This document shows, piece by piece, positions 4,998-42,446 of a stretch of DNA of 64,000 nucleotides. Made by a program: the position numbers and the translations under genes. A model generated the notes under the pieces. That model saw only the letters and a list, made by a program, of their open reading frames with translations. It was not told where the DNA came from and ran no database searches. The first letter of the stretch is position 1, and every line of letters starts with the position of its first letter. The stretch lies in assembly GCA_045648505.1 (NCBI GenBank), contig JAZROD010000044.1:80995-144994 (forward strand), in the 5' to 3' direction. This DNA comes from Clostridia bacterium (GTDB taxonomy: Bacteria; Bacillota; Clostridia; RGIG6154).

Positions 4998-5031
4998 AAA
5001 AATTCCGCAGTACAAACTGCGGAATTTTTTT
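4995..5031. terminator. bidirectional intrinsic terminator
   Basis: aaaaaa-ATTCCGCAGTacaaaCTGCGGAAT-ttttttt between the convergent citrate synthase and yabR genes. Confidence 0.6.
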
Positions 5032-5443
5032 ATCTGCTTCTTCTTGTGCCTCTTTTTGATTCAAAATTTCTTTTAAGCGCAAGCATTCTTTCATCACTGT
5101 CTTGCTTGAATCTGTTCATCTTATCTTCAAAAGAAAGATTTTCTTCCTTTGGTTTTTCAAATATCGCAATATCTGCAGGTCTTGAAGCTTTTTTCGCTCT
5201 TTCTTCTTCAATGACTTTTTTGGCAGAAAGACTTACTTTCCCTTTTTCACAGGAAATAACTTTAACCTTCAGCACATCTCCCACTTTAACAAAATCTTCA
5301 ATATTCTTAACAAAGTCAACTGCGATTTCAGAGATATGTATAAGTCCGGTCTTTCCTCCCTCAATCTGAGCAAACGCACCAAAATTAGTAATACCAGTAA
5401 TCTTGGCTTCCACAACACTTCCAACTTCAAGCTGCATAAACAA
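5030..5443 (-). CDS. yabR: S1 RNA-binding domain protein (YabR-like)
   Basis: S1 domain (VGSVVEAKITGITNFGAFAQIEGGKTGLIHISEI) with a basic C-terminal tail, in the conserved position downstream of divIC. Confidence 0.55.
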   Translation of the reverse strand: MFMQLEVGSVVEAKITGITNFGAFAQIEGGKTGLIHISEIAVDFVKNIEDFVKVGDVLKVKVISCEKGKVSLSAKKVIEEERAKKASRPADIAIFEKPKEENLSFEDKMNRFKQDSDERMLALKRNFESKRGTRRSR

Positions 5444-5460
5444 AAAATCCTCCCAATAGC

Positions 5461-5754
5461 TTACTTTTCAGCAGAGTCAACGAATAAAATTTCGTCATTT
5501 TTAAGGAAGCCGAGCTTGTCCCTTGCGATTTCTTCCACACGCTTGTTGTAGTTATCCTTTTTGAGCTGCTCTTTAATTTCGTTGTCCTTTTGAGTTGCCA
5601 TCAGGATTTCCGCTTCTACGGCTTTCTTATTATTTTTCAAATGAATAATTTTTATTTCCTGTGTAACAAACATTGTGCAGAAATAAACGGTAAGTGCTGC
5701 AACTAAAAATATTTTACCAAGTTTTGATACTTTTTTCTTATTATTTCTTTTCAA
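5461..5754 (-). CDS. divIC: septum formation initiator (DivIC/FtsB family)
   Basis: Small protein with a single TM helix followed by a coiled coil (KEQLKKDNYNKRVEEIARDKLGF), lying between yabQ and yabR. Confidence 0.6.
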   Translation of the reverse strand: MKRNNKKKVSKLGKIFLVAALTVYFCTMFVTQEIKIIHLKNNKKAVEAEILMATQKDNEIKEQLKKDNYNKRVEEIARDKLGFLKNDEILFVDSAEK

Positions 5755-5827
5755 TTGCTACACCTCCCCACTATTCACTAACTCTAGTCTATTTTATTAT
5801 ATTTATTTTAAAAAGTCAATATTTTTC

Positions 5828-5857
5828 ACAAAAAAAAGCAACATCACCGTTGCTTTT
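5828..5857 (-). terminator. intrinsic terminator after yabQ
   Basis: Minus strand reads AAGCAACggtgatGTTGCTT followed by a U-run. Confidence 0.45.
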
Positions 5858-6251
5858 TAATGATTCTTTTTATAAATTGCCTCCAACTGTTATTTTTACT
5901 GCCCAAGGCAAGCTTTTTAAAAGGAATTGTGATTACTTTAAAAAGAGCAAAAACTTTGTCCCATAAATATATAAACAAAGAGCTTAACAACCATCTGTAA
6001 ATGGAAAAACCGAAAAGGGTGAAGAAAAATTCGTACCATCTCAACACACCGTTATTGGCAAAAAAAAGAGCAGAATATATAATCACCGTTTCCCCAAGCC
6101 AGAACAAAACATCTTCAATGGCAACCATCAGATATGAATTAAAGCCGTTTTTTCTTAATGTCTTGAAAAAATCATACCATACACCGCTTATACAACCGCA
6201 CACTATACACCAGCCAACAACCAGAAGCTCCCCTGAAAGTGTATTCTTCAT
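5844..6251 (-). CDS. yabQ: spore cortex biosynthesis membrane protein YabQ
   Basis: Small polytopic membrane protein immediately downstream of yabP; the yabP-yabQ-divIC order is conserved. Confidence 0.55.
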   Translation of the reverse strand: MKNTLSGELLVVGWCIVCGCISGVWYDFFKTLRKNGFNSYLMVAIEDVLFWLGETVIIYSALFFANNGVLRWYEFFFTLFGFSIYRWLLSSLFIYLWDKVFALFKVITIPFKKLALGSKNNSWRQFIKRIIKKQR

Positions 6252-6547
6252 TTAAACAACCCTGACCAGAAACCGCCTCTGCCGTTTGTTTCCTCCCGGT
6301 AGGCTACCGAATCTATGTTTCCGTCTATTATCAATTCTCCGTCTGCTGTGTTAAACTTATTTATGTGCATATTGCTTCCCTTAACCACAAGCTCTCCCAT
6401 TACAGTTGAAAGCTCCACCAACTCTTCATTATACACACCAATGTCCTTCACTCCGCTTATTAAAAGTTTTTCTCTTTTTTCCAGTATTATGTTATGTAAT
6501 TTATTTTCTTCCATAAATTTGTCCCCCTTTTTAACATTATATTTCAA
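6248..6547 (-). CDS. yabP: sporulation protein YabP
   Basis: YabP-like beta-rich sequence (LLISGVKDIGVYNEELVELSTVMGELVVKGSNMHINKFNTADGELIIDGNIDSV); its stop overlaps the yabQ start. Confidence 0.65.
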   Translation of the reverse strand: MKYNVKKGDKFMEENKLHNIILEKREKLLISGVKDIGVYNEELVELSTVMGELVVKGSNMHINKFNTADGELIIDGNIDSVAYREETNGRGGFWSGLFK

Positions 6548-6563
6548 GGGGGACTAAAATATT

Positions 6564-6809
6564 CTAATCAAACTGTCTGTACATCAAAGGAGCATCGTCT
6601 TTTGTTATATGCTTATCGTCAACTTTCAGGATTTCAACTTTAATAATTTTTTCTCCGATGGTAATTTCCATTATATCTCCCACATTAACTTGTGCAGAGG
6701 CTTTTACAACTTTACCGTTTATGGCTATTCTTCCTTTATCACAGGCTTCATTTGCCACAGTTCTTCTTTTTATTATTCTTGAAACCTTCAGAAATTTATC
6801 AACTCTCAT
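6564..6809 (-). CDS. yabO: S4-domain RNA-binding protein (YabO/Hsp15-like)
   Basis: S4 domain MRVDKFLKVSRIIKRRTVANEACDKGRIAINGKVVKASAQVNVGD. Confidence 0.65.
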   Translation of the reverse strand: MRVDKFLKVSRIIKRRTVANEACDKGRIAINGKVVKASAQVNVGDIMEITIGEKIIKVEILKVDDKHITKDDAPLMYRQFD

Positions 6810-6825
6810 TTATATGCCTTTCCTG

Positions 6826-6858
6826 AAAAAAAGAAGCAACCTTGAAAAAGGTTGCTTT
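6826..6858. terminator. intrinsic terminator downstream of hup
   Basis: AAGCAACCTTgaaaaAGGTTGCTT hairpin flanked by A/T runs. Confidence 0.5.
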
Positions 6859-6877
6859 TTTTCTCAAAGTGTTATTA

Positions 6878-7150
6878 TTATTTAATAGCATCTTTGAATG
6901 CTTTACCAGCTTTGAATGCAGGTGCTTTTGAAGCTGGGATTTTCATAGCAGCGCCAGTAGCAGGGTTTCTGCCTTCTCTTGCAGCTCTTTCTTTAACTTC
7001 AAATGTACCGAATCCAACTAACTGAACTTTGTCGTTAGCTTTTAAAGCTCCTTCGATGCTTTCGATAACTGCGTTTAATGCTTTTTCAGCGTCCTTTTTT
7101 GACAATTCAGCTTTTGCAGCAATTGCAGCAACTAATTCTGTTTTATTCAT
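6878..7150 (-). CDS. hup: DNA-binding protein HU
   Basis: [11 protein letters not shown]...[23 protein letters not shown] is the canonical HU/IHF fold signature; 90 aa. Confidence 0.85.
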
Positions 7151-7221
7151 TATATATTCACCTCCTAAGTGATTTAAACTTTCTTTAGTACGGGCAAACC
7201 GCCCTTACAAGTTACAAATTC

Positions 7222-7250
7222 ATTATACATAATAATTTTGATTATTTCAA
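7222..7250 (-). promoter_or_regulatory. sigma-A-type promoter for hup
   Basis: Minus strand reads TTGAAA-17 nt-TATAAT. A GGGCGGTTTGCCCG stem-loop lies in the 5' UTR. Confidence 0.5.
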
Positions 7251-7307
7251 GTGTTTTTATTAAAATTTTTACAATTTTGATTAAAATTAGCGCTTTTTTA
7301 TGGGTTT

Positions 7308-8891
7308 TTAAAGAAATCTGCCTATGATTTTATTGATTTTTTCTGCTCCGGGCATTGAACTTACATCTTCTTTTGTTATTCCTTTAAAGAGAATAAGCCC
7401 TGCAAAATATAAAACAACCGCAAGACCAATGGCAACAACAAGGGCAATTTTATAATCTGTAACGCCCTTTGTAAGGTCATAAACAAAGTATGTTGCCACA
7501 CCCATAACCAGGGCAGAGCCACCTATCTTTAAAACATTTCCCATTCCTACAGATGTATCAAGATATTTTTTAAGAGCAAGAAGGTTTAATCCTGCAGTTA
7601 CCAGATAGCAAAGGTCTGTTCCGATTGGTGCACCGTGAATATTAATAGCCGGATTCCCCACTAAAATATAATTTACAATAACCTTTACTGCCGCACCTAT
7701 TGCCATATGAACAATTGGTACCCACACTTTACCTATTGACTGCAGAATTGAGTTTGTAACCATAACAAGGCTCAAAAAGATAATTCCGTATGCAAGAATA
7801 GATAAAAGCTTTGCTCCACCAAAATCACCCATAAGAAGATTAAGTATAGGCGCAGAAAGTATTGACATTCCCACCGCACAAGGAACTGCAAAAATAAGTG
7901 TAAGTCTTAAAGCAGTTGCGGCGGTAAGGCGTGCTTCTTTTTTATTGCCAAGTGCAATAGCACCTGCAATTGCAGGAACAACACTTACACTCATACCCGT
8001 TATTACAACATTGGGCATATTGAACATTGTAACCGCATCTCCTGCATAATATCCGTAAAGCTGAATTCTTGTTGCTTCATCAAAGCCTATTGCTTCAAGC
8101 TGACGCATAATCATTCCAAGATCAATAAATGTTGCCATAGTGAAAACTGTTGCACCAAGAGTAATAGGGACTGCCAGTTTCAAAAGCTTTACAAGAATTT
8201 CTTTTGAACTTCTCACCTGTTCTTCAACAGAAGTTCCCATAAGCTTTTTAATTTCTTTTTTATTTCTGGTGTTGTAGATAAACATATACACAGCACCTAT
8301 AAAGGTTCCTGTTGAAACACCAAGAATTGCTCCTGCTGCAGAAAACTGTTTTCCCATTGGAAGCATTACTGCCGCAAGTGCAAGTCCAAGTACAAGCTTA
8401 CCCAGTGCTTCAATTATTTCTGAAACCGCAGTGGGAAGCATATTACCAAGTCCCTGATTAAAGCCTCTGTATATACTCATAACGCAAACAAAAAACAAGC
8501 TTGGCGAAAGTGCCATTATGGCATAAGCCGCAGGTTCTGCACGGATAAATGAAGCAAATGTCTGTGCACCAAAAAACATTATTGAGCTTCCTACAAGACC
8601 TATAATGGTTAAAAGAACCTTTGCAACGCTATATATTTTGTTTGTTTCTCTGTAGTTTTTCGTTGCCACGCTTTCTGCAACCATTTTTGAAATGGCAACA
8701 GGAATACCTGCAGTTGCAACTATGAACAACACATTATATATGGTATATGCGGCGGTGTATATTCCGATACCGTCCGCCCCTAAAATAAACTTTCTTAACG
8801 GGATTTTATAAACTGCACCTATAATTTTAACAAGTATGCCTGCTATGGCAATTATAAGTGCTCCCTGAACAAAGCCTTGTTTTTTCTTCAA
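7308..8891 (-). CDS. MOP-superfamily polysaccharide/PG-precursor flippase (SpoVB/YabM-like)
   Basis: 527 aa, about 14 TM helices, N-terminal ALIIAIAGILVKIIGAVYKIPL typical of SpoVB/MurJ-like proteins. Its position next to the yab cluster matches yabM. Confidence 0.6.
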   Translation of the reverse strand: MKKKQGFVQGALIIAIAGILVKIIGAVYKIPLRKFILGADGIGIYTAAYTIYNVLFIVATAGIPVAISKMVAESVATKNYRETNKIYSVAKVLLTIIGLVGSSIMFFGAQTFASFIRAEPAAYAIMALSPSLFFVCVMSIYRGFNQGLGNMLPTAVSEIIEALGKLVLGLALAAVMLPMGKQFSAAGAILGVSTGTFIGAVYMFIYNTRNKKEIKKLMGTSVEEQVRSSKEILVKLLKLAVPITLGATVFTMATFIDLGMIMRQLEAIGFDEATRIQLYGYYAGDAVTMFNMPNVVITGMSVSVVPAIAGAIALGNKKEARLTAATALRLTLIFAVPCAVGMSILSAPILNLLMGDFGGAKLLSILAYGIIFLSLVMVTNSILQSIGKVWVPIVHMAIGAAVKVIVNYILVGNPAINIHGAPIGTDLCYLVTAGLNLLALKKYLDTSVGMGNVLKIGGSALVMGVATYFVYDLTKGVTDYKIALVVAIGLAVVLYFAGLILFKGITKEDVSSMPGAEKINKIIGRFL

Positions 8892-22629: not shown

Positions 22630-22884
22630 TCAATCATTAGAATATGGCAATAAAGCAATATGTCTTGCTCTTTTAATAGCCTCTGTAAGCTGTCTCTGGT
22701 GCTTTGCGCAAGTACCTGTGATTCTTCTAGGAAGGATCTTTGATCTTTCTGATACGAATCTCTTAAGCTTAGCTGTATCTTTATAGTCGATATGTTCAAC
22801 TTTATCAAGACAGAACTGACAAACCTTTTTCTTAGGTCTTCTCATTCTCATCTTGTCTTTGAAATTTTCTTTCATTTCTGACAT
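22630..22884 (-). CDS. rpsR: 30S ribosomal protein S18
   Basis: CQFC...[29 protein letters not shown]. Confidence 0.9.
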
Positions 22885-22905
22885 TTTCGTTACACCTCCA
22901 ATTGG

Positions 22906-23352
22906 TTAAAATGGTAAATCATCTTCATCAGGCACAACCTGGAATCCGTCTGATACGGGTGGCTGTGTCTGCTGCGGAGCTGACTGTGCAGGCGCAGTTG
23001 TGTAGGTAGCAGGCTGCTGTGAGCCGCCATCTCTTTTGCTTTCGGTGAATGAAACCTCGTCTGCAACAACTTCTGTTACATAAACGCGTTTTCCATCCTT
23101 ATCGTCGTAGTTTCTTGTCTGAATTCTACCAACTACTGCAATCATCTGTCCCTTAACAAAATATTTAGAAACAAACTCTGCAGTTGATCTCCATGCAACG
23201 ATGCTGATAAAGTCTGCCTGTCTTTCTTCTCCCTGACGGACATAACCTCTGTCAACTGCGATGCTGAATGTGCATACATTTGCACCTGTTGGTGTTGTTC
23301 TGAGTTCTGGGTCACGAACGAGTCTGCCCATTAAAATAACTTTGTTCAACAT
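22906..23352 (-). CDS. ssb: single-stranded DNA-binding protein
   Basis: OB-fold MLNKVILMGRLVRDPELR...IVAWR and an acidic C-terminal DDLPF tail. Confidence 0.9.
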   Translation of the reverse strand: MLNKVILMGRLVRDPELRTTPTGANVCTFSIAVDRGYVRQGEERQADFISIVAWRSTAEFVSKYFVKGQMIAVVGRIQTRNYDDKDGKRVYVTEVVADEVSFTESKRDGGSQQPATYTTAPAQSAPQQTQPPVSDGFQVVPDEDDLPF

Positions 23353-23373
23353 TCTTTTTTACCAACCTTTCAA

Positions 23374-23667
23374 TTATTTTGCCTGATTGATAACGATGTA
23401 TCTTAAGATACCATCTGTGATTTTGAACTGTCTGCATAATTCTGCAGGGAACTCAGGTGCTGCAGTGAATTCAACTAAAACATAATATCCTTCGGTTAAA
23501 TCGTCGATTTCGTAAGCAAGTCTTCTTTTGCCCCAATCGTCAACCTTTGAGATTTCACCGTTAGCGGAAATTAATGATTTGAACTTTTCAACCAAAGCTG
23601 TAACCTGTTCTTCACCTCTTGAAGAATCAACAATAAAAATTGTTTCGTAGTTATGAGTTTTAACCAT
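23374..23667 (-). CDS. rpsF: 30S ribosomal protein S6
   Basis: DWGKRRLAYEIDDLTEGYYVL. Its 5' UTR contains a CTTACGCACAGAGCGTAAG stem. Confidence 0.9.
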   Translation of the reverse strand: MVKTHNYETIFIVDSSRGEEQVTALVEKFKSLISANGEISKVDDWGKRRLAYEIDDLTEGYYVLVEFTAAPEFPAELCRQFKITDGILRYIVINQAK

Positions 23668-24938: not shown

Positions 24939-27900
24939 TTATAAATTTCCGTTTATAGGCGAATAAACAGGTTTAATATTTGCGAGTCCGCTAAAGAACA
25001 ACAGTTTATATCCTGTTGCTCCCTCACACTGAAGGGTAACTGTATCGCTGTATGCAGATGTAACAGGAATTGCTTTTGATGCAAGCTGAACCCCTCTCTT
25101 GTTGTATGCTTTTACAATCATAAGGGCACTGTCTTTAACAACCTGTTCGTTAAGATTGATTTCAAGACTTACACCGCTATCTGTCTTTGTTGCCGAAACA
25201 ACCTCTGTTGATGCTAAAGAATATACAGAGAACTTTTTAGCACAGATTATAATACTGTCGCTGTTTACTATGAAATATTCACCATCTGCATTAGGTGTTG
25301 TTGTAAGAGCATCAACACTTCCTTCGTGCATTCTAAAAACTATATAAGAAGCTCTTCCTTTGCTTTCAGCGGGAAGTGCAACCTCAAATTCAAGAAGTCC
25401 TTCTGTTTCGGTTACCTCTTTAGCATTCAGACCTTGCTGCTTTTCGATTTTTATGTCTATATTCTGCACGACCTCATAATCTGTATAGTTTTTCGCCACT
25501 TCATTAGTTATTTCTTCCGGTTGTTCTGCACTTCTTACCAATACATTAACCGTTACCGAATTTACAGTTGTATCTATATAATTTTTATCTTCCTGATCAA
25601 AAGCATTTTCAAGTCCTGCAACTGAAGAAATCAAATTAGTTGAGTCTGCAACTGTGGTTTCCATACGGGTAAAATCAACCGTGCCCAAATCAAAGGTTCT
25701 TCCTGTTAAATCAAGATATACCGATTTTGATAAATAATTGCTGACAAGGGTAGTCATTTGTTTAATACCGCTTCTATAGGTAAACCAAAAGTTTCCGTCT
25801 GCGTCTGTGGTGTATGTACTACCAAGTACATAAACTTCTTTATTTGCGGCAACCTCTCCGTTATATGTAATTTTACCTGTAACTGTAGTGTATGGTGTAA
25901 ATTTAGCATATACTGTAACATCTTCGTCAGGCATAACAGCAGGCGGTAATGGTTCCCAGCCGTTAAACCAATGACCCTCAATAGATGGAGTTTGAGTAAG
26001 GTATCCTATTTTTTCCCCACAACCCACCATCATACTTGCAAACTCTTTTCCGTCTACCATATAGGTTAACTTATGCATATTGATGAAATCAATGCTGTCG
26101 GATACTGTTTGTGTTCTTGTTTCATCATCATTTGCAAAAGTAACATTAACCGACTGATATCCGTGGTTTACAGACGGCAGTACATATGAAACTTTTGGTG
26201 TTATTGGGAAATATGCTCCGTCTTCTATTTTATATTTTGTATAGCCGTTTGCATTAAGAGTTAATGTAACATTTCTGTTTGTTGTCTCAGCATCGCTGTT
26301 GTTAATTACAACACTTGCACTGTAATTTAAAAGTCCGCAAAGTGCCTTGCCGTCCTTTACATAGTATGTTGCATCTTTGCCGTTTAATGCAAGAATATCA
26401 TAATCCCAGTTTTCAAGTTCAAGTTCTGTTACTTCAATACCTTTAAGGTTGTCTATATCTTTAAGTGTTCCACTATCTATGGTAAGAGTATTTTCGTCGG
26501 CATATCCAATGCCTGTAATCTTACTGTAGCCGTTTTTGAATAAAAGTGTTTTGTCTGTTTTTTTATATACAGGTCCGTTCACAGTCCACTCTGTCTGTTC
26601 ATAAAGCTTTACTTCAACTGTATTTGCAGTAAGCAGTGCCATCTGTTCTCTTGTGACGGTACTGTCGTAATCCATAACTATACCCTTCAAAATGCCTGCA
26701 CCGCTTGCTGCTGCCATATATGCTGTAGGGTAATAACCACCATAGTTTTGTGCAACAATTTCATATCCCGTTATTGAAACCAAAACCTTTGCAATCTGTG
26801 CATAGGTCATTTCTGTTTCAACGCCGAATACGCCTGCGCCGTCACCATTTATAACACCTTTGTTGCAAAGATACATAACATATCCGTTAAGGTCTGTTCC
26901 TGTTTGCACATCGCTGAAGTGAGAAGTTGTACTGTTCAATGATTTCGCATATTCTTCTCCACCCGTCATTTTTACAACGATTTCGCAAAGTTCGCCTTTT
27001 GTTATATTGGCTTTAGGGTTATCATAGACATTTGTCATTAAGCCTAAATCGTATGCAATTTTGGCAGACTCCACATATCTTGCATCTGTTATACTGCTTC
27101 TTTCTACCTTTGTAAGCTCTTTTTTGCCCATTAACATACAAAAGTCAGACTTACTCATTTCCTTATTGTTTCTGTTTGAAGGAACTGAATAAACTGCAGC
27201 AACCATCTTTGCTTTTTCTTTATCGTACTTGTTGCTGTTCGAATTGTGCCAGCTTTCTATTGTTGAATTGAAATAATCAATATCAGACTGGTCAACATAT
27301 ATTTTATCGCCTGTGCTGTATTCAACAAGAAGCTGATGATATTCTTTTTCATCATAAGTCAAATAGTATGCAACTGCATAAGATGCAACATTTGAGTCAG
27401 TATTTGTCCATCTTAAAATGTTATCTCCATATGAAAGGTTTGTTGCCTTTGCAACTGTTGGTTTCTTATTGTAATAATATGGACTGCTGTATTGGATATC
27501 ATTGTTAAAATCAAGGTTATCGTCAACAGAGCAAACAGAGAAACGATATTCACCGCTTCCGTGATCTACCATTGAATAAATGAAGTTGTTGTATTCAACG
27601 CCCTGCACATTTTCATAAGGCTCTGTAAAATACCATGTACCGTCAATTTCAACATCATCTTTATAAAGCTTTATGTAATATCCGTCTTCATCGCTTGCAG
27701 GCATAAACTTTATTACACCAATTTCATCGCCCCACTGAAGGTCGCCAAACTCTGTTGGCTCTTCCTCTTCAGGTGTTTCAATAACCGAACCATCCAAAGT
27801 TACATAATCTGAATAAGATGGATTTTTTTCATTAATGTCATAAGTCATTGCGTTAACGGAAATACCTATAATTGCATCTTCAGGATCTAATCCCTCATTC

Positions 27901-28499
27901 TCGGCTTCCCACTCAATATCTTCATAAAGCCACTCAAATTCCGAAGGACCGTCTTCAAAGAAATCAAAATAATTGTCATTTCCCACATCATATGTGCAAT
28001 ATGGATTCATACCCTCGTTTATATCAAAAGTATATCCAAGTACAACTTCGTAAAAATCCGCTCCCTGAACTGCATTCCATGTAACAAGATATTTTTTTGC
28101 ATCAAATTTGATATTAGTTGCTTTTGCAAGTGAAACATTAGGTTTTTTATAAACAAAGTTCTCTGATGACTTAAATGTATACTCGCCATTTCCATTACTT
28201 GAGCCTACTTCAACCCTATATGTACCGCTTCCATTATCAAGAATTTCCTCAAGAAGATAAAGATACAGCTCATCTTCATGATAATTGTCCGTATGATGTG
28301 TCCATTCATCTATAATGCGATTGTCTTTATACACATTAATTCTGTATTCATCAACACCATTTACCAATGTGAACATAAATTCACCTGGATATTCTCCTGT
28401 CCAGCAAACTGTTGCCGGTGCTGTTGCCGCAGATACTGTGAATGTAAGCATCTGCATAAGCATCATTACTGCAATTATAAAACTTAATGCTTTTTTCAT
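24939..28499 (-). CDS. large secreted cell-surface protein with internal duplicated domains and central SLH-like domains
   Basis: Signal peptide MKKALSFIIAVMMLMQMLTFTVSA. Two homologous blocks of about 230 aa (YRINVYKDNRIIDEW... and YYIKLYKDDVEIDGTW...). SLH-like motif HFSDVQTGTDLNGYVMYLCNKGVINGDGAGVFGVETEMTYAQIAKVLV. Confidence 0.6.
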   Translation of the reverse strand: MKKALSFIIAVMMLMQMLTFTVSAATAPATVCWTGEYPGEFMFTLVNGVDEYRINVYKDNRIIDEWTHHTDNYHEDELYLYLLEEILDNGSGTYRVEVGSSNGNGEYTFKSSENFVYKKPNVSLAKATNIKFDAKKYLVTWNAVQGADFYEVVLGYTFDINEGMNPYCTYDVGNDNYFDFFEDGPSEFEWLYEDIEWEAENEGLDPEDAIIGISVNAMTYDINEKNPSYSDYVTLDGSVIETPEEEEPTEFGDLQWGDEIGVIKFMPASDEDGYYIKLYKDDVEIDGTWYFTEPYENVQGVEYNNFIYSMVDHGSGEYRFSVCSVDDNLDFNNDIQYSSPYYYNKKPTVAKATNLSYGDNILRWTNTDSNVASYAVAYYLTYDEKEYHQLLVEYSTGDKIYVDQSDIDYFNSTIESWHNSNSNKYDKEKAKMVAAVYSVPSNRNNKEMSKSDFCMLMGKKELTKVERSSITDARYVESAKIAYDLGLMTNVYDNPKANITKGELCEIVVKMTGGEEYAKSLNSTTSHFSDVQTGTDLNGYVMYLCNKGVINGDGAGVFGVETEMTYAQIAKVLVSITGYEIVAQNYGGYYPTAYMAAASGAGILKGIVMDYDSTVTREQMALLTANTVEVKLYEQTEWTVNGPVYKKTDKTLLFKNGYSKITGIGYADENTLTIDSGTLKDIDNLKGIEVTELELENWDYDILALNGKDATYYVKDGKALCGLLNYSASVVINNSDAETTNRNVTLTLNANGYTKYKIEDGAYFPITPKVSYVLPSVNHGYQSVNVTFANDDETRTQTVSDSIDFINMHKLTYMVDGKEFASMMVGCGEKIGYLTQTPSIEGHWFNGWEPLPPAVMPDEDVTVYAKFTPYTTVTGKITYNGEVAANKEVYVLGSTYTTDADGNFWFTYRSGIKQMTTLVSNYLSKSVYLDLTGRTFDLGTVDFTRMETTVADSTNLISSVAGLENAFDQEDKNYIDTTVNSVTVNVLVRSAEQPEEITNEVAKNYTDYEVVQNIDIKIEKQQGLNAKEVTETEGLLEFEVALPAESKGRASYIVFRMHEGSVDALTTTPNADGEYFIVNSDSIIICAKKFSVYSLASTEVVSATKTDSGVSLEINLNEQVVKDSALMIVKAYNKRGVQLASKAIPVTSAYSDTVTLQCEGATGYKLLFFSGLANIKPVYSPINGNL

Positions 28500-37772: not shown

Positions 37773-39359
37773 TCAGCAAATATGGCTTAATACATTAGGT
37801 GTTACCACTCTTCCCCATGATGTATGCCATACTGGTTCATCCAGAACAGGCTCGTCAAGTTCAGGGATTTCTACTATTTCACCACTTATAAGCATTTCAA
37901 GTCGCTTCATACAGCTTTCTGTTCTCTGAAGAAGTGCTCCCATTCTTATGTCCTGAATATCAAAACCGTGAGGCTTATAGTCTTTAAACCATCTTGCCTG
38001 ATGTGTATTGTGGAAATTCTTTATTCTTTTTATAAGTTCCTTGCAGTCTGCAACAATTTCTTTAAGCTTGTCCATATCACGGTTTTGGTATGCCTCTCTT
38101 GTGCGGATACCGATGGTACTCTTTATTTCAAGCACTTCTGCCAAAGCCTGACAAACATCAAAAATATATTTATATTCTCCTTTGCCTTCCGCATTTTTAA
38201 TTTCTTCCGCAAGAGCTTTATAATAATCTGCATCTTCAGGTGAACACATATAATCTCTCATACCCATAAACATATCGTTATAAAGAATATATCTGTCTGC
38301 TGTACCCCGATGCTTACCGCCCGGAGTTGCAACCTTGTCAAGCATTAAAAAGCTATCAAAATCACAACCTGTAATTTCTCTGAACTTTTCTTTTATGCTT
38401 TCCATATCTTTGTTGCCTTTTGCACATTCTGATGCATACATAAGCGAAGGAAGGATAGCAAAAGGAGAACACTCGTTTCCGTCATCACCCCATACAGTAA
38501 TCAATATTCCGTCAATACCTTCATTTAAGCAGGCATCAACTGCAGCCTTTGTTGCATCTATAGAGAACTGATTTCTTGGGGCAAATCCGCTCCATGTCCA
38601 CGCACCGCCTGCAAAATAAACCTTTCTGCCGAAAAGCTTATTTGTTTTTAACATTCTTGTATAGTGGTCATAATCTGTTGAATAATAATCCCAGTAAACA
38701 AGTGAAATATTTTCAGGCAGACTTGCTTTTTCTTTTATGGCAGATGTATCCACATCTGCGTACTGATTTTCTGTATCCATTGCAAGCTTACAGAACATAT
38801 CACTCCATATCATAGGCTCAAAACCGTATTTATCACCTATTTCACAAACCTTGTGAAGATGTTTGTTGATTATATCAAATCTGTCTGCAGGTCCGTGAAG
38901 CTGGAAATATTTTCCAAGACCTACACGATATGCCTCATCCATACCTATATGGATTTTTCTTGTTGAAAAACATTCTGAAAGAGATGCAAACATATCCTCA
39001 ATAAGGGCATAGGTTTTTTCTTCTTCACAAAGAAGAATATCATCACAATCTTTAACCTCGCCGTACTGAGCCTCCCATTTAAACATACAGTTAAGGTGTG
39101 CCAGTGTCTGAATGCAAGGCACAAGCTCAATTCCTATTTCGTTGCAATATTTATCAAGCTCTTTCATTTCAGCCTTACTGTATCTTCCTCTTAAATGACC
39201 GAAATACGGATTGTTGTTTATTTCGTATGTATCTTCTGTGTATAACATAAGGGTATTATAACCCATCTTTTTAATTATCTGTGCATATCTTTTTACGGCA
39301 TCAACTGTAAGCACACCATTTCGTGAACAGTCAACCATAACACCCATCATTTTTTCCAT
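37773..39359 (-). CDS. glycoside hydrolase family 20 beta-N-acetylhexosaminidase
   Basis: GH20 catalytic region IHIGMDEAYRVGLGKYFQ (H-x-G-x-D-E) and TIM-barrel layout. Confidence 0.7.
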   Translation of the reverse strand: MEKMMGVMVDCSRNGVLTVDAVKRYAQIIKKMGYNTLMLYTEDTYEINNNPYFGHLRGRYSKAEMKELDKYCNEIGIELVPCIQTLAHLNCMFKWEAQYGEVKDCDDILLCEEEKTYALIEDMFASLSECFSTRKIHIGMDEAYRVGLGKYFQLHGPADRFDIINKHLHKVCEIGDKYGFEPMIWSDMFCKLAMDTENQYADVDTSAIKEKASLPENISLVYWDYYSTDYDHYTRMLKTNKLFGRKVYFAGGAWTWSGFAPRNQFSIDATKAAVDACLNEGIDGILITVWGDDGNECSPFAILPSLMYASECAKGNKDMESIKEKFREITGCDFDSFLMLDKVATPGGKHRGTADRYILYNDMFMGMRDYMCSPEDADYYKALAEEIKNAEGKGEYKYIFDVCQALAEVLEIKSTIGIRTREAYQNRDMDKLKEIVADCKELIKRIKNFHNTHQARWFKDYKPHGFDIQDIRMGALLQRTESCMKRLEMLISGEIVEIPELDEPVLDEPVWHTSWGRVVTPNVLSHIC

Positions 39360-39583
39360 AATATACTCCTTTTTCTTTTTTCTTTAATTATAGCACAACA
39401 TATCTAAATTACAATATAAATTGAAAATAAAATCAGGTGCCATACCAAACTTTCTGATATATTAAGCATTTCCCTTTATTCGCTGATGTATGTTCCACGG
39501 ACTTTATCTGCTGTAAATATTATGTAAACCTGACATTTTTTCACCCTTGATTTTCCCCATAAAATCGCGACTCTTTTTGACAC

Positions 39584-39682
39584 TTTTCCACAGTTTTCAA
39601 CCATAAATTCCAAAAATGACTTGTGGATAATGTGGATAACTTTGTTGAAAAGTCCGTTTTAACAACTTTTTCCTGTGGAAAA
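39584..39682. promoter_or_regulatory. cluster of four DnaA-box-like 9-mers
   Basis: TGTGGATAA at 39622-39630 and 39631-39639 (perfect reverse complement of TTATCCACA); TTTTCCACA at 39584-39592; TGTGGAAAA at 39674-39682. Lies in the AT-rich spacer between the divergent GH20 and tcdA genes. Confidence 0.5.
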
Positions 39683-39843
39683 CTTTTTCCGGTAGTTTTT
39701 ATACATATTTTATTATGTAAACTAGATTTTTTGTTACAATTTCACTCAGAATATAACACATTTTCACACTTTTCCTCTTCTTTCTGTTCACAATTCTCTT
39801 GCTATTTTTGTTCCTTTATTGTAAAATAGATACGGGTGAAATT

Positions 39844-40545
39844 ATGGAAAGAATTTTTATCAGAAGTGAAATGCTTTACGGCGAAAACTCCACCGCCATT
39901 CTTAACAATTCCAAAGTTGCAATCTTCGGCATTGGCGGAGTTGGTTCTTATGTGTGCGAAGCTCTGGCAAGATGTGGTGTTGGTTCTTTAACACTTATAG
40001 ACAACGACACCGTAAGCTATTCAAATATAAACAGACAGCTTGTTGCTCTGCACAGCACAGTGGGTAAATACAAAACAGAGGTTATGGCAGAAAGAATAAA
40101 AGACATTAACCCTTCCTGCAATGTTACAACGCTTAATATGTTTTACACTGCCGAAAGTGATTTTGATATAAGCTATTTTGATTATATCGTTGATGCCATA
40201 GATACTGTTTCTTCAAAAATACATCTTGCAGTTTTGTGTCAGGAGAAAAACATTCCCCTTATAAGCTGTATGGGTGCAGGAAATAAGCTTGACCCTACTG
40301 CATTTAAAGTGGCAGATATTTTTGAAACATCAGGTTGCCCCTTAGCAAGAGTTATGAGAAAAGAACTTAAAGCAAAAGGTGTTAAAAAGCTTAAAGTTGT
40401 TTATTCAACAGAAGCACCTTTAACCCCTCTCCCTCTTGAAACAACCGAAGGAAGACGGCAGACTCCCGGCAGTTGCGCCTTTGTTCCGTCAGTTGCAGGA
40501 CTTGTTGCAGCAGGTGAAGTGGTTAAGGATATTGTCGGAATATGA
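39844..40545 (+). CDS. tcdA: tRNA threonylcarbamoyladenosine dehydratase (ThiF/MoeB/HesA family, TcdA/CsdL-like)
   Basis: Rossmann motif VAIFGIGGVGSYVCEALARCGVGSLTLIDNDTVSYSNINRQ. Confidence 0.7.
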   Translation: MERIFIRSEMLYGENSTAILNNSKVAIFGIGGVGSYVCEALARCGVGSLTLIDNDTVSYSNINRQLVALHSTVGKYKTEVMAERIKDINPSCNVTTLNMFYTAESDFDISYFDYIVDAIDTVSSKIHLAVLCQEKNIPLISCMGAGNKLDPTAFKVADIFETSGCPLARVMRKELKAKGVKKLKVVYSTEAPLTPLPLETTEGRRQTPGSCAFVPSVAGLVAAGEVVKDIVGI

Positions 40546-40706
40546 CTTAATATTTTTGTTGCAAACAATACTTAACTGTGTTATACTTATAGCAGTTGAG
40601 TATGTTCGGTTTTGAGATGCACAACAGTGCATCTCTTTTTTATGAGAGCCTTTTTTATTGTTCGGACTTTTGGCTCTTATTTTACATATTTAAAAGGAGG
40701 TATATT

Positions 40707-42446
40707 TTGGATAAGAAAACAAACACAAAAAAATATTATGTACGAAAAAAACCGCTTAAACCAAGGGTTCAGAAGAAGCCTTCTCAGCCACTTGGAAATC
40801 TTAAAATTATTCCACTTGGCGGTTTCGAGGAAATAGGTAAAAACTTAACGGTTTTTGAATATGAGGACGATATTGTTATTTTAGACTGTGGCGTTGCATT
40901 CCCTGATGAGGAAATGCTTGGAGTTGACCTTGTTATCCCCGATATGACTTATCTTTACAAAAACAGGGATAAAATCAGAGGTCTTATTATAACTCACGGT
41001 CACGAGGACCATATCGGCGCAATTCCTTATCTTTTAAAAGATATAAATGTTCCTATTTATGCAACAAAGCTTACACTTGGAATTTTAACTCACAAGCTTG
41101 ATGAACACGGACTTTTAAAAACTGCAAAATTAAATGTTACCAAGCCGGGACAGATTGTTAAGCTTGGAAACATCAAAGCAGAATTTATCAGAACAAACCA
41201 CAGTATTGCAGATGCAGTTGCAATTGCTTTCCACACTCCTGTGGGAGTTGTTCTTCACACCGGTGACTTTAAAATTGACTCAACTCCAATAGATGGCGAA
41301 ATGCTGGACTTCGCCAGAATCGGTGAGCTTGGCAAAAAAGGAATTTTAGCACTTCTTTCAGACAGTACAAATGTTGAACGACCGGGCTACTCAATGTCTG
41401 AAAGAAAAGTTGGCGATACTTTAGAAGAAATCTTCTCAAAAACCAATTCAAGAATAATTGTTGCAACCTTTGCTTCAAACATTCACAGAGTTCAGCAGAT
41501 TATAAATATTGCGGCAAAATATAAAAGAAAAGTTGCAGTTTCAGGCAGAAGTATGGAAAGTGTTGTTACTTCCGCCCGTGAGCTTGGTTATCTTAAAGTG
41601 CCCAAAGGTACTTTGATTGATATTTCCGAAATTGACAAATATAAGCCAAGAAACCTTGTTATTGTAACAACAGGCAGTCAGGGTGAACCTATGGCGGCTC
41701 TTGCAAGAATGGCAAGCAACGGACACAAAATGGTTGAAATCACAAAGGATGACCTTGTTATTCTCTCATCAAGTCCTATTCCCGGCAACGAAAAGCTTAT
41801 TGCAAGGGTTATTGATGAACTTTGCAAAAAAGGTGCAGAGGTTATTTATAAATCTCTTGCGGATGTTCATGTTTCAGGTCACGCCTGTCAGGAAGAGCTT
41901 AAAATTATGCTTTCAATAGCAAAGCCTAAATTCTTCATTCCTGCCCACGGCGAATACCGTCATCTTATGATGCACGCTAAACTTGCCCAGAAAATAGGTA
42001 TGAAAGAAGAAGATACTTTCATTATGAAAATCGGTCAGGTACTTGAGCTTAACAGACAAACCGCAAAAATCAACGGAAATGTTCAGTCAGGCAGAGTTTT
42101 TGTTGACGGCAGTGGCGTAGGCGATGTTGGTAATATTGTTATAAGAGACAGAAAAGTTCTTTCAGAAGAAGGTCTTATTGTTGTTGTGGTTGGGATTTCA
42201 AGCCACACCAAGGAAATCGTATCAGGTCCTGATGTTATTTCAAGAGGCTTTGTTTATGTAAGAGAGTCTGAAGAACTGATGGAAAACATCAAAGCACACG
42301 CAAAAGAAGCTTTAATAATCGCAGGAAGCAAAAAGCACAGTGACTGGAACTCTATGAAAACTGCAGTTAAAAACAGCTTAAGTCAGTATATTTTCAGTGA
42401 AACAAAGAGAAGTCCTGTAATACTTCCCGTAATTCTTGAAATATAA
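40707..42446 (+). CDS. rnj: ribonuclease J (metallo-beta-lactamase/beta-CASP)
   Basis: LKIIPLGGFEEIGKN, HxHxDH motif ITHGHEDHIGAIPYL, beta-CASP and C-terminal domains. TTG start 6 nt after an AAGGAGG RBS. Confidence 0.85.
   Translation: MDKKTNTKKYYVRKKPLKPRVQKKPSQPLGNLKIIPLGGFEEIGKNLTVFEYEDDIVILDCGVAFPDEEMLGVDLVIPDMTYLYKNRDKIRGLIITHGHEDHIGAIPYLLKDINVPIYATKLTLGILTHKLDEHGLLKTAKLNVTKPGQIVKLGNIKAEFIRTNHSIADAVAIAFHTPVGVVLHTGDFKIDSTPIDGEMLDFARIGELGKKGILALLSDSTNVERPGYSMSERKVGDTLEEIFSKTNSRIIVATFASNIHRVQQIINIAAKYKRKVAVSGRSMESVVTSARELGYLKVPKGTLIDISEIDKYKPRNLVIVTTGSQGEPMAALARMASNGHKMVEITKDDLVILSSSPIPGNEKLIARVIDELCKKGAEVIYKSLADVHVSGHACQEELKIMLSIAKPKFFIPAHGEYRHLMMHAKLAQKIGMKEEDTFIMKIGQVLELNRQTAKINGNVQSGRVFVDGSGVGDVGNIVIRDRKVLSEEGLIVVVVGISSHTKEIVSGPDVISRGFVYVRESEELMENIKAHAKEALIIAGSKKHSDWNSMKTAVKNSLSQYIFSETKRSPVILPVILEI

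Follow-up and report, generated by a model that had tools for sequence, protein, structure and literature searches.

A conserved DnaA-box cluster in the 5′ control region of a tcdA-like gene in an uncultured Clostridia lineage

The tcdA locus and its DnaA boxes

The window, that is, the whole 64-kb stretch of DNA that was analysed, carries the ordinary chromosomal gene set of a spore-forming member of Clostridia according to Pfam, including spoIID, SipL, the gerA operon, mreB, luxS, sepF, miaA, mutL, mutS, ispDF and proS. Neither Rfam nor ARAGORN gave a match anywhere in the window. The intergenic region of interest (39360-39843, 484 bp, about 30% GC) separates a GH20-family gene from a divergently oriented tcdA-like gene, in keeping with the AT-rich spacer of ~480 bp between divergent GH20 and tcdA genes given in the preliminary description. 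The best NCBIfam match of the TcdA-like protein was TcdA, with a score below the equivalog cutoff, and its homologues carry the NCBI name tRNA threonylcarbamoyladenosine dehydratase. The co-oriented gene downstream encodes RNase J1 (rnj) and is probably the operon partner of tcdA.

Several further observations were made on the gene content. The longest RNase J open reading frame starts with TTG and is ~38 residues longer at the N-terminus than the 578-aa genes called in relatives, and the RNase J family model starts at its residue 69. The true start probably lies near 40710, which would give a tcdA-rnj gap of ~165 bp, and a one-mismatch box TTATCCAAA is located on this putative start (40706-40714). 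The minus strand at 24939-28499 encodes a 1186-aa protein with one SLH repeat as its sole recognised domain. After it come two ORFs, of 363 and 313 aa, for which Pfam gives little or no annotation, and this is the lowest-GC part of the window (~32%). The minus strand also carries a yabM/spoVB-like, hbs, yabO, yabP, yabQ, divIC, yabR group at 5030-8891 and an rpsF-ssb-rpsR operon at 22630-23667. The yabM-to-yabR group and rpsF-ssb-rpsR are origin-proximal in B. subtilis, which by analogy hints that the window belongs to the origin-proximal part of the chromosome.

The 64-kb window contains exactly two perfect TTATCCACA boxes, and these abut each other on the minus strand of the tcdA spacer. They are accompanied by two TTTTCCACA boxes, each of which has one mismatch to TTATCCACA, so that the two head-to-tail perfect boxes and two one-mismatch boxes reported earlier were recovered with the same sequences and coordinates. 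When the relaxed consensus TTWTNCACA, as applied in a study of the C. difficile oriC (PMC7561715), was used, all four main boxes were perfect, and 4 of the 21 matches in the window fell inside these 99 bp. Together with three boxes having one mismatch to this consensus, the cluster comprises seven boxes in 132 bp, arranged as convergent groups that point rightward (39551, 39574 and 39584) and leftward (39622, 39631, 39643 and 39674). Within the leftward group, TTTTCAACA (39651-39643), AAG and TTATCCACA (39639-39631) follow one another in the same orientation and form the geometry of a double DnaA box, which is invariant in relatives. Among 300 sequences of 64 kb simulated with a first-order Markov model, none contained four or more boxes (one mismatch or fewer) per 100 bp, and none contained two perfect boxes per 100 bp. 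In ~1.2 Mb of unrelated Clostridia loci, at least three boxes per 150 bp were found at three places only. The box density at this locus is thus far beyond chance.

Table 1. Features of the tcdA spacer and its neighbouring genes
Feature	Position	Strand	Remarks
GH20-family gene	37773-39359	-	Pfam Glyco_H_20C_C (9e-50) and Glyco_hydro_20
Flanking repeat copy 1, TATTATGTAAAC	39518-39529	+	left edge of conserved block; invariant in 9 loci
Candidate distal promoter P2	39538-39565	+	-35 TTTTCA, 16 nt, -10 TAAAAT; promoter scan and alignment
Weak DnaA box TTTTCCCCA (7/9)	39551-39559	+	within P2 spacer; TTTTTCCCA/TTTTCCCCA in relatives
Weak DnaA box TTTTTGACA	39574-39582	+	ATTTCGACA in relatives; sole variable inner base is the N of TTATNCACA
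DnaA box TTTTCCACA	39584-39592	+	perfect to TTWTNCACA; kept in 8/9 loci, TTTTCCATA in L083
Invariant 11-mer AAATTCCAAAA	39605-39615		midway between convergent box groups; matches no nameable site
Two abutting perfect DnaA boxes TTATCCACA TTATCCACA	39622-39630 and 39631-39639	-	invariant across loci except one base in L095
Weak DnaA box TTTTCAACA (7/9)	39643-39651	-	3 bp from perfect box; invariant
DnaA box TTTTCCACA	39674-39682	-	perfect to TTWTNCACA; invariant in alignment
Flanking repeat copy 2, TATTATGTAAAC	39711-39722	+	193 bp from copy 1, same orientation; invariant in 9 loci
Invariant TGTTAC	39733-39738		just right of TATTATGTAAAC copy 2
Probable proximal tcdA promoter P1	39799-39827	+	-35 TTGCTA (TTGATA in relatives), 17 nt, -10 TAAAAT
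tcdA-like ThiF-family gene	39844-40545	+	homologue of tRNA t6A to ct6A dehydratase; Pfam ThiF (4e-43)
RNase J1 gene (rnj)	40596-42446	+	Pfam, NCBIfam; 3′ of tcdA, co-oriented

Conservation of the cluster and its promoter context

Close homologues of TcdA formed twelve clusters at 84-93% identity, the next matches having at most 65%. Nine loci from relatives with TcdA 84-91% identical, all of them from metagenome assemblies and representing eight distinct sequences, were compared. The results showed that a block of ~330 bp equivalent to 39516-39843 lies directly before tcdA in all nine loci, that nothing aligns among the relatives to the left of 39516, and that the left neighbour of the block takes five forms (GH20, a flavin reductase, a 1096-aa deacetylase-like protein, the thiamine transporter YuaJ, and LRAT/VanZ). 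Mean pairwise identity was 87% in the box core (39578-39685), 74% in the whole block, 81% in the tcdA coding sequence, 56% at the four-fold degenerate sites of tcdA, and 40% in the left flank, the box cluster being the best-conserved part of the block. The spacing of the boxes was retained apart from a single 1-nt deletion in one locus, and the variation inside the boxes falls on positions tolerated by the consensus, namely N5 of TTATNCACA and W3. The C/T of the sequence (A/T)TTT[C/T]GACA, for instance, is the N of TTATNCACA. The preliminary description had named a lack of conservation in relatives among the observations that would speak against it; what was found is that eight distinct relatives keep both the boxes and their spacing despite the changed upstream gene. 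The tcdA(-rnj) unit has a conserved 5′ control region, which contains the cluster.

Three other candidate motifs were considered and rejected. A Spo0A box (TTCGACA) beside 39584 is present in only 5/9 loci and its variable base coincides with the N in the DnaA consensus, for which reasons it reads better as a weak DnaA box. A parS-like TGTTCCACG at 39491 is only half of parS and is situated in the unconserved flank. Three matches to TTATGTAAAC in L046, two of them ~192 bp apart, all lie within a glycosidase coding sequence and were attributed to chance.

A hotspot of rearrangement adjoins the block on its left, as seen by comparing 39360 with L081, L083, L084 and L093-L096. Events there among genomes with TcdA 84-91% identical include single-gene insertions (GH20 and the 1096-aa deacetylase-like gene) and larger rearrangements. 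LRAT/VanZ, located at 61.4-62.4 kb of the window, is directly next to the block in one relative.

The distribution of the cluster is narrow. Wherever the contig of a close relative continues beyond tcdA, rnj is the adjoining gene (L095 is unclear, and L096 ends at tcdA). Among the matches listed, 71 distant loci cover enough sequence downstream of tcdA, and in none of them does rnj follow. The 80 more distantly related genomes among the matches listed (tcdA at 50-64% identity) lack a cluster upstream of tcdA, with a box density there of 0.25/kb versus 0.35/kb overall. A general tcdA-associated element was therefore rejected, and any tie of the cluster to the function of tcdA is not a general one. 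As judged from this absence in the distant tcdA loci compared, both the cluster and the pairing of tcdA with rnj arose in one genus-level lineage.

Analysis of promoters in the block pointed to two sites. P1 is the only sigma-A-type pair at the same alignment column in 9/9 loci, and is located ~7 nt upstream of the Shine-Dalgarno sequence GGGTGA (39834-39839), suggesting that it is the probable promoter of tcdA. P2 is a candidate by its match to the consensus: its -10 element occurs in relatives only as TAAAAT, TAATAT, TAAATT or TAATTT, with T1, A2 and T6 kept, and its -35 element is weak, poorly conserved and recognisable in only five loci. Transcription from P2 would start at ~39572. The boxes are situated ~115-250 bp upstream of P1, overlap P2, and fill positions +2 to +110 relative to the candidate P2 start, which implies the geometry of a repressor or roadblock at P2 if P2 fires. 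The promoter scan detected no minus-strand promoter for the left-hand gene that is common to the relatives.

Part of the cluster recurs elsewhere. Seven metagenome contigs without tcdA, from a different lineage (L086-L092), carry an identical copy of the 31-mer TGTGGATAATGTGGATAACTTTGTTGAAAAG. This 31-mer contains the two boxes, CTT and TGTTGAAAA, the last being a 7/9 box within the 13 bases after the boxes and 3 bp from the perfect box. In L086-L092, it is part of a larger cluster of three abutting perfect boxes and at least four others in ~180 bp (for example, L087 6470-6650), flanked on one side by the 3′ end of a Mur ligase gene and on the other by the start of an operon with DnaD-domain and DnaI-like helicase-loader genes. 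Control by DnaA is expected in such a replication-gene context, and the operon is a candidate DnaA-regulated helicase-loader operon. We read the shared 31-mer as a double box plus one abutting box, which would serve as a high-affinity nucleation unit at no fewer than two Clostridia loci.

Two other box clusters were observed in Butyrivibrio proteoclasticus (L022, 76-231 and 1985-2062), one with five one-mismatch boxes and the other with two perfect boxes plus one. They are near a ZIP transporter and an FMN reductase, ~8 kb from the tcdA of B. proteoclasticus, and are possible DnaA-box clusters of that organism in their own right.

Alternative readings of the locus

The conserved block contains more than DnaA boxes. 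The window contains exactly two copies of the flanking 12-mer TATTATGTAAAC and, apart from these, none with one mismatch, and synteny with the relatives breaks exactly at the left copy. Comparison with dif reference sequences (PMC3025954, PMC11040001) revealed that all 12 bases of TATTATGTAAAC agree with positions 16-27 of dif in both B. subtilis (ACTTCCTAGAATATATATTATGTAAACT) and S. aureus, corresponding to the dif central region and XerD arm (XerD arm 10/11 plus 2 central bases). The XerC arm is absent at both copies: its position matches at 3/11 in copy 1, and is conserved at neither copy. Since a dif site spans 28 bp with a XerC arm, a 6-bp centre, a XerD arm and a partial palindrome, and here the XerC arm is missing and no palindrome is conserved, a true dif site was rejected.

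These repeats raise the alternative that the block is a composite element of chromosome organisation, in which the TATTATGTAAAC copies are real XerD-type sites like the XDS of B. subtilis and the DnaA boxes have been co-opted, so that the element would serve SMC unloading and chromosome architecture or act as a recombination hotspot rather than regulate tcdA. XDS are reported to be dif-like sites at which B. subtilis XerD unloads SMC, and XerD binds them without their being recombination sites or being used for dimer resolution (PMC11840125). The identity of the 12-mers to the central-plus-XerD half of the Firmicute dif, their restriction within 64 kb to two direct, invariant copies 193 bp apart, and the break in synteny at copy 1 with five different left neighbours are consistent with such an element. 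However, the likeness is one of sequence only: there are two direct copies, each with half a site, and no skew switch or other signature of the terminus was seen. The XDS are terminus-proximal in B. subtilis, whereas the window carries genes that are origin-proximal in that species. Furthermore, an AT-rich 12-mer with TATTAT could function as a -10-like element or be recognised by an unrelated regulator, and a second site bounding the variable left-hand genes at their far end was not found. We consider this alternative unlikely. A bolder form of it, quite improbable in our judgement, would make the locus a module of ~200 bp in which convergent DnaA boxes bracketed by XDS-like sites couple the initiator to Xer/SMC-type organisation or to site-specific rearrangement, and bring tcdA and RNase J under the control of replication status. 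The suggestion of site-specific rearrangement comes from the break in synteny exactly at the left repeat. If true, such a module would be a convergent echo of the B. subtilis clusters beside tsaC, tsaD and trmE.

It is very unlikely that the region acts as RNA, either as a structured 5′ leader of some length or as a small RNA, with the boxes conserved for reasons of RNA structure. A transcript from the candidate P2 would begin at ~39572, and the inverted boxes can pair on paper. However, no Rfam match at gathering score or at E<=1 was obtained, RNAalifold on eight sequences gave a compensatory change in 0/35 predicted pairs with a covariation term of +0.58, the single-sequence folding z-score was -1.2, and an intrinsic terminator was not found. 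The conserved words are, moreover, exact DnaA-box consensus in both orientations, which constraint on an RNA would not yield.

The possibility of a replication origin displaced from dnaA, be it the chromosomal one, a second one or a relic, was weighed against the organisation of the window. A dense cluster with tandem perfect boxes between divergent genes, directly followed by a tract of 15-20% GC (39680-39740), resembles the oriC basal unwinding system in having tandem same-orientation boxes of the high-affinity type beside AT-rich DNA. In other respects the locus differs from that system. The genes dnaA, dnaN and rpmH are absent from the 64 kb, as noted in the preliminary description, and a Pfam scan of the non-overlapping ORFs of at least 150 aa in the window detected no DnaA or DnaN domain. 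The unwinding module of an origin consists of one or more DnaA boxes, a spacer of at most 16 bp and at least three DnaA-trios of the 3′-GAT-5′ type (PMC8287927), which in the example of C. difficile form a conspicuous CTA/TTA repeat (PMC7561715). No run of at least three trios (3′-[G/A]A[T/A]-5′) was found within 16 bp of any box on either side, nor in the flanks CTTTGTTGAAAAGTCC and, on the bottom strand, AGTCATTTTTGGAATTT of the tandem boxes. Tracts comparable to 39680-39740 occur elsewhere in the same spacer, and the AT content is what intergenic DNA usually has when the genome is 36% GC. In addition, genes at 47-57.7 kb point toward the site.

The skew of the window was consistent with these results. 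The replication component of GC skew was obtained by averaging plus-strand GC skew over plus- and minus-strand genes, which separates out the effects of gene orientation. It was -0.09 to the left and -0.05 to the right of 39.6 kb at all positions, and -0.19 and -0.12, respectively, at codon position 3. A skew that places oriC at this site had been named as evidence against a secondary cluster; within the window, no change of sign was found there. As the component is negative on both sides, the whole window would belong to a single replichore whose origin lies somewhere past the right end of the window. The reading as an origin is already largely refuted, and we regard it as extremely unlikely even in its relic form. 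The earlier preference for a secondary cluster of the B. subtilis type over oriC is supported by the conservation of the boxes, the skew and the absence of trios.

A hidden small protein gene, such as an sda-like checkpoint peptide under the control of DnaA, is extremely unlikely: one cluster in B. subtilis does drive the small gene sda (PMC3245932) and a GTG-initiated ORF of 68 aa (39623-39829) overlaps the boxes, but this ORF has no ribosome-binding site, differs in length and C-terminal sequence in every relative and is missing in some, and no other ORF is common to the relatives.

Relation to known DnaA-binding loci and proposed role

Most of what has been learned about secondary DnaA-binding loci comes from B. 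subtilis and E. coli. B. subtilis has six DnaA-box clusters (DBCs), at which DnaA activates sda and represses ywlC, yydA and dnaA (PMC3245932, PMC4447404). Deletion of all six led to early initiation, and in related Bacillus species the clusters are found beside different genes (PMC3245932). In vitro, the B. subtilis DBCs have 4-12 sites and were bound by DnaA at 0.13-0.33 uM (PMC4447404). Like them, the cluster described here consists of intergenic TTATNCACA-type boxes away from dnaA and beside ordinary genes, and its box number (seven), span (~130 bp) and mixed orientation match theirs. The cluster fits the DBC class on every feature visible in the sequence. A location near oriC is usual for DBCs, though not required, and the gene groups of the window that are origin-proximal in B. 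subtilis hint at such a location here. The cluster differs in belonging to uncultured Clostridia with another neighbouring gene, in not being conserved beyond one genus-level lineage, and in carrying dif-half-like brackets and other invariant motifs that are undescribed for DBCs.

The neighbouring genes offer a further parallel. Two B. subtilis DBCs adjoin genes of the t6A pathway, ywlC (TsaC2) and gcp/ydiE (TsaD), and one adjoins trmE, while the cluster here adjoins tcdA. YwlC and YdiE make t6A, which TcdA converts to ct6A (PMC4615747). By this analogy, DnaA-box clusters beside t6A-pathway genes may have arisen twice, with a single case here and no wider association with tcdA, so that the parallel could be a coincidence.

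Comparison with E. coli bears on the arrangement of the boxes. ChIP-seq in E. coli showed that DnaA binds in vivo almost only at pairs of boxes 2-3 bp apart, as a rule a weak box with a consensus box, such as the 7/9 box and perfect box at purH, and that an increase of the spacing by 1 bp abolishes binding (PMC11317965). The minus-strand TTTTCAACA-AAG-TTATCCACA has the same geometry of a weak and a consensus box, and differs in that an extra perfect box abuts at 0-bp spacing. The datA and DARS loci are likewise non-origin DnaA loci of E. coli that control the availability of the initiator. They work through hydrolysis of DnaA-ATP or nucleotide exchange, an activity not inferable for the cluster here.

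Taken together, we favour, with good though not full confidence, a lineage-specific, non-oriC DnaA-box cluster of the B. subtilis DBC kind, which would bind DnaA and control the transcription of tcdA(-rnj), titrate DnaA, or both. All that goes beyond the conservation of the boxes we infer. The layout of the boxes, an abutting perfect pair combined with a double box of weak box, 3 bp and perfect box, would permit cooperative recruitment of DnaA and formation of a stable oligomer. Since the boxes overlap P2 and sit just downstream of it, bound DnaA would act as a transcription factor by occluding or roadblocking this candidate promoter, and it may modulate P1 as well. The nearest box is more than 115 bp from P1, which is far for classical repression or activation and counts against a regulatory reading. 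Under control by bound DnaA, the expression of tcdA, which encodes a tRNA-modification enzyme, and of RNase J would track the level of DnaA and the status of replication. DnaA bound at the cluster would necessarily be removed from the free pool, which amounts to titration, and we cannot say from the sequence whether regulation or titration is the selected effect. The invariant motifs outside the boxes, namely AAATTCCAAAA, the two TATTATGTAAAC repeats and TGTTAC, suggest that proteins other than DnaA are probably also involved, and DnaA may not be the only or the main ligand.

In the literature that could be searched, no description of a secondary DnaA-binding locus in Clostridia was found. The locus described here is a short, phylogenetically footprinted candidate for distinguishing the action of DnaA as a transcription factor from titration in anaerobic spore-formers. 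It bears on whether the E. coli rule of weak box, 3 bp and strong box holds in Firmicutes, and it offers pipelines for origin prediction an actual case in which a strong box cluster is no origin. Moreover, it bears on whether replication status feeds into the t6A/ct6A modification of tRNA and the expression of RNase J in these bacteria.
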